Shown here piece by piece: positions 60,055 through 63,030 of a stretch of 64,000 nucleotides of DNA. The position numbers and the translations under genes were made by a program. Source of the DNA: Patescibacteria group bacterium (lineage in GTDB: Bacteria > Patescibacteriota > Patescibacteriia > Patescibacteriales > WJLG01); the NCBI GenBank assembly GCA_041652555.1, contig JBAZHE010000001.1, positions 66,847 to 130,846 on the forward strand, in the 5' to 3' direction. Below the pieces are notes generated by a model. That model worked only from the letters and a program-made list of their open reading frames with translations. It had not been told where the DNA came from and did no database searches. The stretch's first letter is position 1. Every line of letters starts with the position of its first letter.

Positions 60055-63030
60055 ATGGAAAAATATAATCACTTAGAAATAGATAAAAAATGGCAAAAGG
60101 CTTGGGAGGAAGAAGGGGTTAATAAAACCGGAGAAGATCAAGCTAAGCCAAAATATTATGTTTTAGATATGTTTCCTTATCCGTCAGGAGCTGGTTTGCA
60201 CGTTGGTCATCCTAAAGGGTATATTGCGACTGATATTTTGGCACGCTATAAAATGATGAATGGTTTTAATGTGTTGCATCCTATGGGTTGGGATGCTTTT
60301 GGTTTGCCAGCAGAAAATTATGCTTTAAAAAATAAAGTTCATCCAAAAGTTCAGACAGAAGAGAATATCGCCACTTATAAGAAGCAATTGGAAAAAATTG
60401 GTATGTCTTATGACTGGAGTAGAGAAATTAATACAACTGACCCAGAATATTATAAATGGACACAATGGACTTTTATTAAAATGTGGGAAAAAGGTCTGGC
60501 TTTTGAATCATTTGAGCCAATTATTTGGTGTCCAAAATGTCAGACTGGTTTGGCTATGGAGGACTTGGAAGATGGTAAATGTGAACGTTGTGAATCAGAA
60601 ATAGAACGCAAGCCAATGCGTCAGTGGGTAATAAAGATAACCGATTACGCTGATAGACTTTTAGCTGATTTGGATAAATTGCCGGGCTGGGAAGATTCTA
60701 TTAAAGAAATGCAACGCAATTGGATTGGAAGATCAGAAGGCGCAGAAATTAACTTTGTCATTGCGAGCGAAGCGAAGCAATCCCGAGGCGAGAGCAACGA
60801 CATTAAGGTTTTCACCACTCGTCCTGATACGCTATTCGGCTGCACCTATGTCGTTATTGCTCCCGAGAAGCTAGTAGATTTAAAATTAGAAATTAAAAAT
60901 AAAGCTGAGGTTGATGAATATATTAAAAAAACTAAGGCTAAATCTGATTTGGAGCGGACTGATTTGAATAAAGATAAAACTGGTGTGAAATTAGAAGGTG
61001 TAATGGCGATTAATCCAGCTAATGGTGAAGAAGTCCCAGTGTTTATTGCTGATTATGTTTTGGCTGGTTATGGCACCGGCGCCGTAATGGCAGTACCAGC
61101 TCATGATGAGCGCGATTTTGAATTTGCCAAAAAATATGATTTGCCAATTAAAAATGTTATTGAGCCGGAATTTGGTGAAAAAAGAGAGAATGAAGAGTTT
61201 AGGAATAGGATTGTTGCCGTGGTGTATAATCCTAAAAATAATAAAGTTTTAACTTTAAATTGGGGAGATAAGTTTGGTGGCTATTTAAATGTTGGAGGAG
61301 GAATAGAAGAAGGGGAAAGTCCTGAACAGGCGGCACGTCGAGAAATTTTAGAAGAGACAGGTTATAAAAATCTTAAATTAGTTAATCAATCAGAAAAAGT
61401 TCGTCATCATTTTATCGCTTATAATAAAGGCGTGAATCGGGGTACGGAAATTATTGGTTTATTTTTTGAATTAATTGATGAATTGGCTGACGCACAAAGT
61501 CTATCTCCTGAAGAGGAAGGAAAATTTGAGTTGGAATGGTTATTGGCTTCTGAAGTTAAAAATAAAATTATAGACCCTTGTCATAATTATTTAGTGGATA
61601 AGTTTATTAATGATGTTGCTTTTACTGGAAATGGTTTTAATGTTAATTCTGATTTTTTGAATGGTTTGTCGACTGCTGAAGCGAAGGTGAAAATAGTTGA
61701 GTGGCTAGAAAAAGAAGGTAAGGGGAAGAAAAAGGTTAATTATAAATTGAATGATTGGGTTTTTTCTCGTCAGCGTTATTGGGGTGAGCCGATTCCTTTT
61801 GTGCATTGTGAAAAATGTGGCGTTGTGCCAGTGGCGGAAAAGGATTTGCCAGTGCGTTTGCCGGATGTTGAACATTACGAGCCGTCTGGAACAGGGGAAT
61901 CACCTTTGGCAAATATTACTGATTGGGTAAATACTACTTGCCCAAAATGTGGTGGGAAGGCTAAACGCGAAACTAATACTATGCCACAATGGGCTGGTTC
62001 GTCTTGGTATTATTTGCGCTACATTGATTCAAAAAATTCTGAAAGCTTAGTTGATAAAGAAAAAGAAAAATATTGGTCGCCAGTTGATTTTTATGTTGGT
62101 GGTGCTGAGCATGCCACACGTCATTTAATTTACGCCCGTTTTTGGCATAAATTTTTATTTGATATTGGTGTAGTAAATTATGAAGAACCGTTTACTAAAT
62201 TGCAACACGTCGGTTTAATAATGGCTGAAGACGGTAGAAAAATGTCTAAACGCTGGGGTAATGTCATTAATCCTGATGACATTATCGCACAATACGGTGC
62301 CGATGCGATGCGTGTTTACGAAATGTTTATGGGCCCATTCGGTCAGTCTTGTGCTTGGAATACTAACGGTTTAGTCGGAGCACGAAAATTTTTGGATAAA
62401 ATAAATGATTATGTTGATAGTTGGAAAGTTGAATATAAAGAAGGAGAAGTTCATGAAAGCAAGGACACAGTTATTGATAAAAAAAATAGTTTAATAGAAA
62501 AAACTATAAAAAAAGTAGGCGAGGATATTGTTGAATTTAAATTTAATACCGCTATTAGTCAAATGATGATTTGTTGGAATTATATTCGTGCGGAAGAAAA
62601 GAAGAACTTGCCGAATGGAGCTGAATATTCCGAAACTTTAGAACGTATTATTACTAAAAAGCAGTTAGGAAAACTTATTCAAATTCTTGCGCCTTTTGCT
62701 CCGCATTTAGCTGAAGAAATTTGGCGTAATAAATTGGGCAACAAGCAAAGTATTTTTGTGTCAGAGTCCCCTTCGGGAGACCATAATAAGACGGTGATGT
62801 CTGTTTGGCCTGAATATGACCCAGAATTAATAAAAGATGATATAGTTAATTTGGTTGTGCAGATCAATGGTAAGCTTCGTGCTACTATTGAAGTGGCAGC
62901 AGATATTTCTGAAGAAGATGCAAAAAAATTAGCTCAAGAAAATGATAACATTAAAAAATGGTTAGAAGGAAAAGAAATTATAAAAATAATTTTCATTCCA
63001 GGCAAGCTTCTTAATATTGTAGTGAAATAA
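60055..63030 (+). CDS. leuS: Leucine--tRNA ligase with an inserted Nudix hydrolase domain
   Basis: HVGHPKGY (HIGH), KMSKR (KMSKS), CP1 editing TTRPDT...[13 protein letters not shown], then the Nudix box [23 protein letters not shown]. ATG at 60055. Confidence 0.95.
   Translation: [991 protein letters not shown]
60756..60801. repeat. 46-bp palindromic element in-frame within leuS
   Basis: tgtcattgcgagcgaagcgaagcaatcccgaggcgagagcaacgaca. The ends tgtcattgc/gcaacgaca are inverted. Translated as [15 protein letters not shown]. Confidence 0.6.

Follow-up and report, generated by a model that had tools for sequence, protein, structure and literature searches.

What does a Nudix hydrolase domain do inside a leucyl-tRNA synthetase (LeuRS), and how firmly is it tied to the enzyme that carries it? 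We address this question for the leuS gene in a 64,000-nt stretch of contig JBAZHE010000001.1 from a Patescibacteria group bacterium, referred to here as the window. The LeuRS encoded there contains an insert of 150 residues (aa 372–521) where the enzyme of Thermus thermophilus has 11 at the same place. This insert is a genuine Nudix domain, a member of the Nudix superfamily by score, by its Nudix box and by its predicted fold. Alignment places the domain nested inside the CP1 editing domain, in a surface loop, and not behind CP1 as a first-pass annotation of the same DNA had proposed.

A Nudix domain nested in the CP1 editing domain

Residues 1–371 of the window protein align to residues 1–364 of T. 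thermophilus LeuRS and residues 522–724 to residues 376–579. Between these two blocks, the Pfam NUDIX profile PF00293 matches aa 383–513 over profile positions 3–130 of 134 (E = 1.1e-14, 55.1 bits against a cut-off of 21.1), and the excised segment alone scores E = 3.4e-16 (59.9 bits). The exact Nudix box occurs once in the six frames of the 64-kb window. The Pfam LeuRS editing-domain model halts at profile position 149 of 185 just ahead of the insert, and the LeuRS match picks up behind it; because the model breaks there and LeuRS homology resumes past the insert, we assign the insert to CP1. The positions of the host gene, its motifs and the nested domain are as follows.

60055–63030, + strand: leuS, bacterial-type leucyl-tRNA synthetase with nested Nudix domain (TIGR00396; PDB sequence comparison with T. 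thermophilus LeuRS 1h3n, E = 1e-223; AlphaFold2 (AF2) model; identity to MFA5247756.1)
60199–60210, + strand: HIGH motif HVGH of the synthetic site, aa 49–52 (read from the sequence)
60715–61167, + strand: N-terminal part of the CP1 editing domain, aa 221–371 (PF13603 on aa 221–378, profile positions 1–149 of 185, E = 3.9e-60)
60814–60831, + strand: T-rich motif TTRPDT, aa 254–259, within the N-terminal part of CP1
61099–61116, + strand: AHDERD with the conserved editing Asp, aa 349–354, within the N-terminal part of CP1
61168–61617, + strand: nested Nudix hydrolase domain with short linkers, aa 372–521, replacing loop 365–375 of T. thermophilus LeuRS (PF00293, AF2, Foldseek)
61297–61365, + strand: Nudix box GX5EX7REUXEEXGU, G415–Y437 (exact regular-expression match)
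61618–61749, + strand: C-terminal part of CP1 with the strand leading back to the catalytic core, aa 522–565, including VNYKLNDW (aligns with T. thermophilus LeuRS from residue 376)
62239–62253, + strand: KMSKS motif KMSKR, aa 729–733 (read from the sequence)

The AF2 model of the Nudix domain, based on a 37-sequence alignment, reaches a predicted local distance difference test (pLDDT) of 94.8 and a predicted template modelling score (pTM) of 0.89, and it predicts the alpha/beta/alpha Nudix fold for the insert. Foldseek comparison of this model to the PDB returned Nudix enzymes only, with a probability of 1.0. The top match is E. faecalis 2azw (template modelling score (TM) 0.75/0.81), and further matches include E. 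coli RppH (~0.68, including the complex 7sp3 with diadenosine tetraphosphate (Ap4A)), NudB, the Aquifex Ap4A hydrolase 3i7u and the Thermus Ap6A hydrolase Ndx1. A profile search of PDB sequences likewise ranked 2azw first, then the decapping effector AvrM14 and the Aquifex Ap4A hydrolase, all with alignments that cover most of the domain. The first-pass annotation had called a Nudix domain inserted in LeuRS at 61171–61620, with a perfect box; domain scan, confident structure prediction and Foldseek all bear out this call, as does recurrence in many independent assemblies, and its coordinates lie within 3 nt of ours.

The host gene is a complete bacterial LeuRS with its synthetic and editing motifs intact. 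It lies in an uninterrupted open reading frame (59938–63030, + strand), and translation most likely starts at ATG 60055 to give 991 residues, because that Met pairs with residue 1 of T. thermophilus LeuRS. The NCBIfam model TIGR00396 (leuS_bact) scores 1032 bits against a cut-off of 548.4, with the insert splitting the match into two stretches. The full-length AF2 model (pLDDT 83.5, pTM 0.78) superimposes on E. coli and Thermus LeuRS structures with target-normalised TM of 0.78–0.83, the highest value being that for E. coli 4aq7 (0.83). Across 45 aligned LeuRS (alignment A4), with or without insert, the HIGH, KMSKS, T-rich and editing Asp motifs are invariant, H49, G51 and H52 being unchanged throughout. 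Domain order and all four motifs are as in the bacterial enzymes of T. thermophilus (1H3N/2BTE) and E. coli (4AQ7), whereas the window protein carries the 150-residue Nudix domain instead of the 11-residue CP1 loop and adds a small insertion near the start of CP1. The leucine-specific domain, which precedes KMSKS in the Thermus and E. coli enzymes, is absent from the window LeuRS: the alignment jumps from Thermus residue 579 to 637 between residues 724 and 729 of the window protein (window 62230–62250), omitting ~57 residues (Thermus ~580–636).

The origin of the contig from a single-sample metagenome-assembled genome (MAG) is the sole reason to ask whether this architecture is an artefact, be it an assembly chimera, a frameshifted gene call or an intein-like selfish element, and we regard such an artefact as practically excluded. 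We reject a chimera on several grounds: (i) the reading frame is uninterrupted; (ii) the identical protein is deposited at NCBI as MFA5247756.1, 'leucine--tRNA ligase [Patescibacteria group bacterium]' (P0121, 100%), and is also present in JGI (P-numbers denote database proteins retrieved, L-numbers GTDB species loci); (iii) the same insert junctions recur in LeuRS from many samples at 60–84% Nudix identity; (iv) the base composition of the insert is that of its flanks; (v) the domain bears the marks of purifying selection described below; and (vi) the full-length model has a mean pLDDT of 89–92 in the 10-residue blocks that span the junctions (residues 361–380 and 511–530). We likewise reject an intein or homing element, since no Hint, intein or homing-endonuclease Pfam match was found in the 991-residue protein at E ≤ 0.1. 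The two outcomes that the first-pass annotation had named as speaking against its call, a segment lacking the Nudix fold and an assembly chimera, both came out negative.

Conserved residues and family placement

Among 37 LeuRS-embedded homologues, the glutamates E430, E433 and E434 do not vary and neither do the box glycines G415 and G436 (37/37); R383, W403, K458, R462 and W495 are nearly invariant. Between related loci, the ratio of nonsynonymous to synonymous substitution rates (dN/dS) is 0.04–0.29 for the Nudix domain versus 0.05–0.21 for the LeuRS core, values that are rough because dS is near saturation. Judged from these alignments, all catalytic residues are retained in the Nudix domain, and selection on it is purifying.

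This conservation bears on the proposal that the Nudix domain is non-catalytic, serving as a binding, regulatory or structural lobe (a nucleotide sensor or an extra tRNA contact) in which the motif is kept for ligand binding. Non-enzymatic Nudix-fold proteins are known (PMC5389931), and the box of one subgroup of the nested domains (P0139, P0157, P0240) no longer contains its first Glu and its Arg. A lobe of this kind is nevertheless very improbable in our view, as the three metal-binding glutamates are invariant in all 37 homologues, most copies retain the full canonical box, free-standing homologues exist and close LeuRS relatives lack the domain.

A second conserved region lies downstream of the box.

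61411–61440, + strand: X-loop region [FY][FYI]A..K..NR, F453...K458...R462, 16–25 residues past the Nudix box (column counts)

Position 453 (+16 relative to the box) is Phe in 20 and Tyr in 17 of the 37 homologues, K458 is found in 36 and R462 in 34, and positions +16 and +17 are aromatic or Ile in every one. The window protein itself has F453 at +16 and Y456 at +19; the Tyr of Nudix-type diadenosine polyphosphate (ApnA) hydrolases is expected at ~+17. Dunn et al. in 1999 reportedly located this Tyr in the X-loop, ~16–18 residues after the box. The signature probably marks both the family and its substrate-contact loop; a role in substrate contact has been described for the X-loop ~17 residues downstream of the Nudix box (PMC5389931).

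The excised segment was compared to curated NCBIfam models, and it falls short of every equivalog cut-off. It does not reach those of NudB (PRK09438; 39 bits versus 103, with an alignment across the whole domain), MutT (TIGR00586 and PRK10776; 28.8 bits versus 97.9 and 28.7 versus 148) or RppH (PRK00714 models; 28.4 and 28.9 bits versus 116 and 118), and other RppH models yield 16.8–23.4 bits against cut-offs of 139–259. Because of these shortfalls, the domain belongs to no named Nudix family, and the modelled resemblance to RppH (TM ~0.68) is at the level of the fold only. The small monomeric Nudix hydrolases RppH/NudH, aq_158 (3I7U), Ndx1 (1VC8), AvrM14 and the uncharacterised 2AZW have the same fold (TM 0.66–0.81) and a canonical box, and like them the window domain is a single domain with no dimerisation extension; its X-loop Lys aligns with that of Aquifex 3I7U and AvrM14. 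It differs from this group in sequence (identity of only 16–26%, with scores far below the equivalog cut-offs), in its own signature [FY][FY]A..K..NR and in being nested in another enzyme.

When 1.84 billion representative proteins were searched with the Nudix segment alone, only 574 relatives came up at E ≤ 1e-3. Among the best 150 of these, 95 of the 142 newly retrieved proteins are LeuRS or LeuRS fragments, and no other synthetase was seen as host. As delineated by these searches, the domain is part of a small subfamily, the nearest members of which lie mostly at the same LeuRS site in Patescibacteria, with some in LeuRS labelled as gut Bacilli. Free-standing subfamily members of 155–190 residues exist as well. 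Those from Patescibacteria (P0256, 154 residues; L036; L049) have box and X-loop signature in common with the window domain at 35–38% identity over the whole domain, and differ from it in being separate genes with varied neighbours. The neighbourhoods of six free-standing homologues revealed no consistent synteny. At one locus (L037, 2926–5852), a free-standing subfamily Nudix gene precedes a class I (Ile/Val/Leu-type) tRNA synthetase gene by ~300 nt and has a second, divergently oriented Nudix gene beside it; this is a single case and not a pattern. Another protein (P0359, 1035 residues, possibly a fragment) combines two Nudix domains distantly related to that of the window with RNA polymerase beta' domain 5 (PF04998), so that RpoC of related organisms may likewise harbour nested Nudix cassettes.

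Recurrence and exchange of inserts in CP1

We surveyed the 120 closest LeuRS clusters for inserts and found a Nudix domain at this site in 54 (~45%), most of them with a perfect box. The spacing between the editing Asp motif and SRQRYWG is bimodal in the 120 proteins (~77–146 or ~190–287 residues), with P0142 at 449. A search of GTDB species genomes with a close 11-sequence Nudix alignment, from which 80 loci were kept, showed a LeuRS-embedded Nudix in most of these, under the labels Saccharibacteria, Parcubacteria/Paceibacterota, Moraniibacteriota, Nomurabacteria, Taylorbacteria and Kaiserbacteria. The same architecture has been public since 2015, as in KKR48747.1 / UniRef100_A0A0G1A7R1 (Magasanikbacteria) and A0A0G1JJD3 (Uhrbacteria). 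These nested-Nudix proteins are named plainly 'leucine--tRNA ligase', an automatic annotation that hides the nested domain. Six loci carry giant leuS reading frames of 1150–1735 residues in which long additional sequence flanks the Nudix domain at either end: L043 (Taylorbacteria, 1735 residues), L055, L054, L067, L060 and L003.

The first-pass annotation also knew of no Nudix module in an aminoacyl-tRNA synthetase. As regards the literature this holds, since a full-text search found no paper describing Nudix in LeuRS or nested domains in Patescibacteria synthetases, and a comprehensive review of the Nudix clan (PMC5389931) never mentions tRNA synthetases; as regards databases it does not, the architecture being common in Patescibacteria and long deposited. 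We could not find, as far as the literature search shows, a description of nested, cassette-like catalytic domains in the editing domain of a bacterial synthetase.

The accretion of extra domains by aminoacyl-tRNA synthetases is well known in eukaryotes. In the bacterial enzymes compared here, the presence of the insert often differs between close relatives. The LeuRS with the highest core identity to that of the window (P0125, 87–88%) has the short loop only and no insert, and P0122 (core 85–86%) carries a Nudix domain 84% identical to that of the window, with catalytic parts 85–86% identical. On a neighbour-joining core tree, which is approximate, insert states are scattered and sisters are often unlike, with pairs of (i) Nudix type I versus none, (ii) Nudix type IV versus a nucleotidyltransferase-like domain and (iii) alpha/beta hydrolase versus none. 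The pairwise identities given above do not depend on this tree. The site of the window insert (site B, Pfam profile position ~145–150) is occupied by one of four Nudix types, by a Pol-beta-type nucleotidyltransferase-like domain, by a Ser-hydrolase (alpha/beta hydrolase) or by nothing; the nucleotidyltransferase-like assignment rests on weak Pfam matches, one of them below cut-off. P0142 has a Nudix followed by a Ser-hydrolase at site B, P0150 has a Ser-hydrolase downstream of the SRQRYWG motif, and some LeuRS contain two or three Nudix copies. Another insertion site, early in CP1 (site A, profile position ~18–22), holds a Ham1/ITPase, a single alpha/beta hydrolase or a pair of them, or a DUF559 endonuclease.

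In other LeuRS, low-complexity and possibly repeat-derived peptides fill the same loops, which suggests that the loops tolerate insertions. Remnants of lost inserts were sought in short-loop sister LeuRS, with no convincing homology and only such peptides found. The window LeuRS has a related feature at site A.

60759–60783, + strand: GC-rich stretch CATTGCGAGCGAAGCGAAGCAATCC encoding IASEAKQS, part of a 7–9-residue in-frame expansion of site A between WIGRS and TTRPDT (spacing, GC)

Site A spans 31 residues here compared to 22–24 in most relatives, and GC content has a local peak of 0.44 at these positions. Similar low-complexity peptides (CHSERSDSEVKNL..., SRGAQDDK) occur at site B of P0129 and P0146 and at the start of the P0127 insert. 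The expansion resembles a repeat element inserted in frame, but neither the window nor the 80 loci retrieved contain a second copy of the GC-rich stretch.

Taken from these sequence comparisons, the host loop is an insertion hotspot at which the insert is dispensable for LeuRS and the occupants are exchangeable. This variable-cassette hotspot in CP1 goes past what the first-pass annotation had observed and is the more interesting result. The two CP1 loops would be natural permissive sites for domain insertion in LeuRS, and as such useful in protein engineering.

Cassettes may also have moved between lineages. Type I Nudix domains were found in 11 loci labelled as gut or rumen Bacilli/Erysipelotrichaceae MAGs (L012, L015, L017, L019–L025, L028), and the N-terminal 360 residues of the L022 LeuRS are 68% identical to Bacillus LeuRS versus 53% to that of the window. 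The Nudix domains of these Bacilli-labelled LeuRS are 45–57% identical to Patescibacteria type I, a value as high as that of the core (~54%); within Patescibacteria, the Nudix domain is usually far more diverged than the core. These values hint at lateral movement of the Nudix cassette, and the Bacilli-labelled proteins suggest either cassette transfer between phyla or mislabelled bins.

The very patchy distribution and the swapping of cassettes among near-identical LeuRS would suit a protective or repair module, in which exchangeable enzymes would work on the 3' end of tRNA or neutralise toxins or antibiotics directed against LeuRS or tRNA-Leu (such as adenylate mimics, or 3'-end pyrophosphorylation or nucleotidylation), with an arms race driving their diversity. 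All inserts are enzymes that modify small molecules or RNA ends, and they sit in the domain responsible for handling the CCA end of tRNA; the lateral movement suggested by the Bacilli-labelled sequences points in the same direction. A curated family of isoleucyl-tRNA synthetases with a GNAT domain also exists (NCBIfam NF040702, 'isoleucine--tRNA ligase, N-acetyltransferase domain-containing'); as here, a class I synthetase of the Ile/Leu/Val group bears an accessory small-molecule-modifying domain, but host, domain (GNAT versus Nudix) and position all differ, and the window protein scores 79.5 bits against a cut-off of 1999. To our knowledge, variable-cassette behaviour is not known for that family. 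We consider a protective module improbable, however, for three reasons. No significant full-length defence-system match to the Nudix insert was found in PADLOC-DB, the matches obtained being generic and weak (PDC-S07, 25.5 bits over the Nudix-box region, aa 16–80 of 151; AbiEii, E = 0.009, for the nucleotidyltransferase-like insert). No toxin or immunity gene is linked, and the gene surroundings of free-standing homologues vary. Tolerance of a permissive loop can by itself account for the diversity of inserts. If the cassettes did protect LeuRS or tRNA-Leu, they would constitute a new form of built-in immunity.

A wider version of this proposal, to which we attach a similarly low probability, treats CP1 of LeuRS in Patescibacteria and in some Bacilli-labelled small-genome gut bacteria as a hypervariable docking platform. 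Cassettes would be swapped there because of their action on tRNA 3' ends, on toxins directed at LeuRS or tRNA, or on by-products such as Ap4A. The platform would serve as a hub for immunity, repair or quality control, and related Nudix cassettes would lie in RNA polymerase beta' as well.

Probable activity of the nested domain

Every one of the closest characterised relatives of the domain hydrolyses either a bridge of three to six phosphates or the cap or triphosphate at an RNA 5' end. The conserved basic residues R383, K458 and R462 appear suited to a polyphosphate chain, and the X-loop presents an aromatic pair at +16/+17. Because of these reactions, basic residues and the aromatic X-loop, we favour a nucleoside-polyphosphate hydrolase. 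We put at about even the chance that the insert is an autonomous nucleoside-polyphosphate pyrophosphohydrolase (ApnA, nucleoside triphosphate (NTP)-like or RNA 5'-end) that an essential protein carries in a permissive loop.

In this mechanism, the domain would be a Mg2+-dependent pyrophosphohydrolase acting as a monomer, as its position inside a monomeric enzyme dictates. Its substrate class would be that of its nearest characterised relatives, namely Ap4A/ApnA, NTP-like triphosphates or a 5'-polyphosphate or Np4-capped RNA end. Splicing into a permissive loop would lead to expression one-to-one with an essential enzyme, and aminoacylation and editing by LeuRS would run as usual with no need of the Nudix domain, which would be a house-cleaning or ApnA-clearing enzyme that LeuRS carries. 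It would be gained, lost and exchanged among leuS alleles, probably by recombination across conserved flanks. The Ham1/ITPase inserted in LeuRS at site A, a member of another house-cleaning family, fits such an autonomous house-cleaning role. If the domain clears Ap4A-type products or RNA caps, translation would be physically tied to nucleotide-signal housekeeping in minimal genomes.

Several points weigh against an autonomous hydrolase of this kind. As no curated Nudix cut-off is reached, the substrate is a guess by neighbourhood. The concentration of the subfamily in LeuRS rather than in many hosts could signify a LeuRS-specific role. Rapid turnover is also a mark of conflict-related functions. 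Some Nudix copies, those of the subgroup with the altered box, may be weakened.

Aminoacyl-tRNA synthetases are a main cellular source of Ap4A. The Nudix domain could be coupled to its host as sink to source, destroying LeuRS by-products (Ap4A/Ap3A from Leu-AMP and ATP/ADP, or other adenylylated products), with the hydrolase kept beside the source. The nearest characterised relatives do include Ap4A and Ap6A hydrolases as well as RppH solved with Ap4A, and the subfamily is concentrated in an aminoacyl-tRNA synthetase; in addition, the X-loop is aromatic at +16/+17, where ApnA hydrolases have Tyr (PMC5389931). We judge such coupling rather unlikely, as the closest LeuRS relatives manage without the domain, the same loop or a neighbouring one is taken by unrelated enzymes in other LeuRS (nucleotidyltransferase-like, alpha/beta hydrolase, ITPase), no host synthetase besides LeuRS was seen and the window protein has Phe, not Tyr, at +16. 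LeuRS is moreover a weak producer of Ap4A compared to LysRS or PheRS. The Ap4A-type or RNA 5'-end function that the first-pass annotation had suggested is in keeping with the nearest relatives (Ap4A hydrolase, RppH, decapping Nudix), while the patchy, exchangeable nature of the insert argues against an obligatory link to LeuRS catalysis or editing.

Several other genes of the window were noted. The competence protein ComEC is encoded at 36206–37792, and competence genes would fit an exchange of leuS alleles by recombination. The alanyl-tRNA synthetase (27207–29036) has only 610 residues, with no Pfam match past tRNA_SAD, which ends at aa 605. An ADP-forming acetyl-CoA synthetase (42921–45611) is fused to a GNAT domain. 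A UvrD/PcrA-type helicase of 821 residues (22682–25144, + strand) contains an RNase_T/DnaQ-like 3'-5' exonuclease (PF00929, aa 468–620, E = 1.9e-23) inside UvrD_C (aa 279–796), a second nested-enzyme architecture in the same window.

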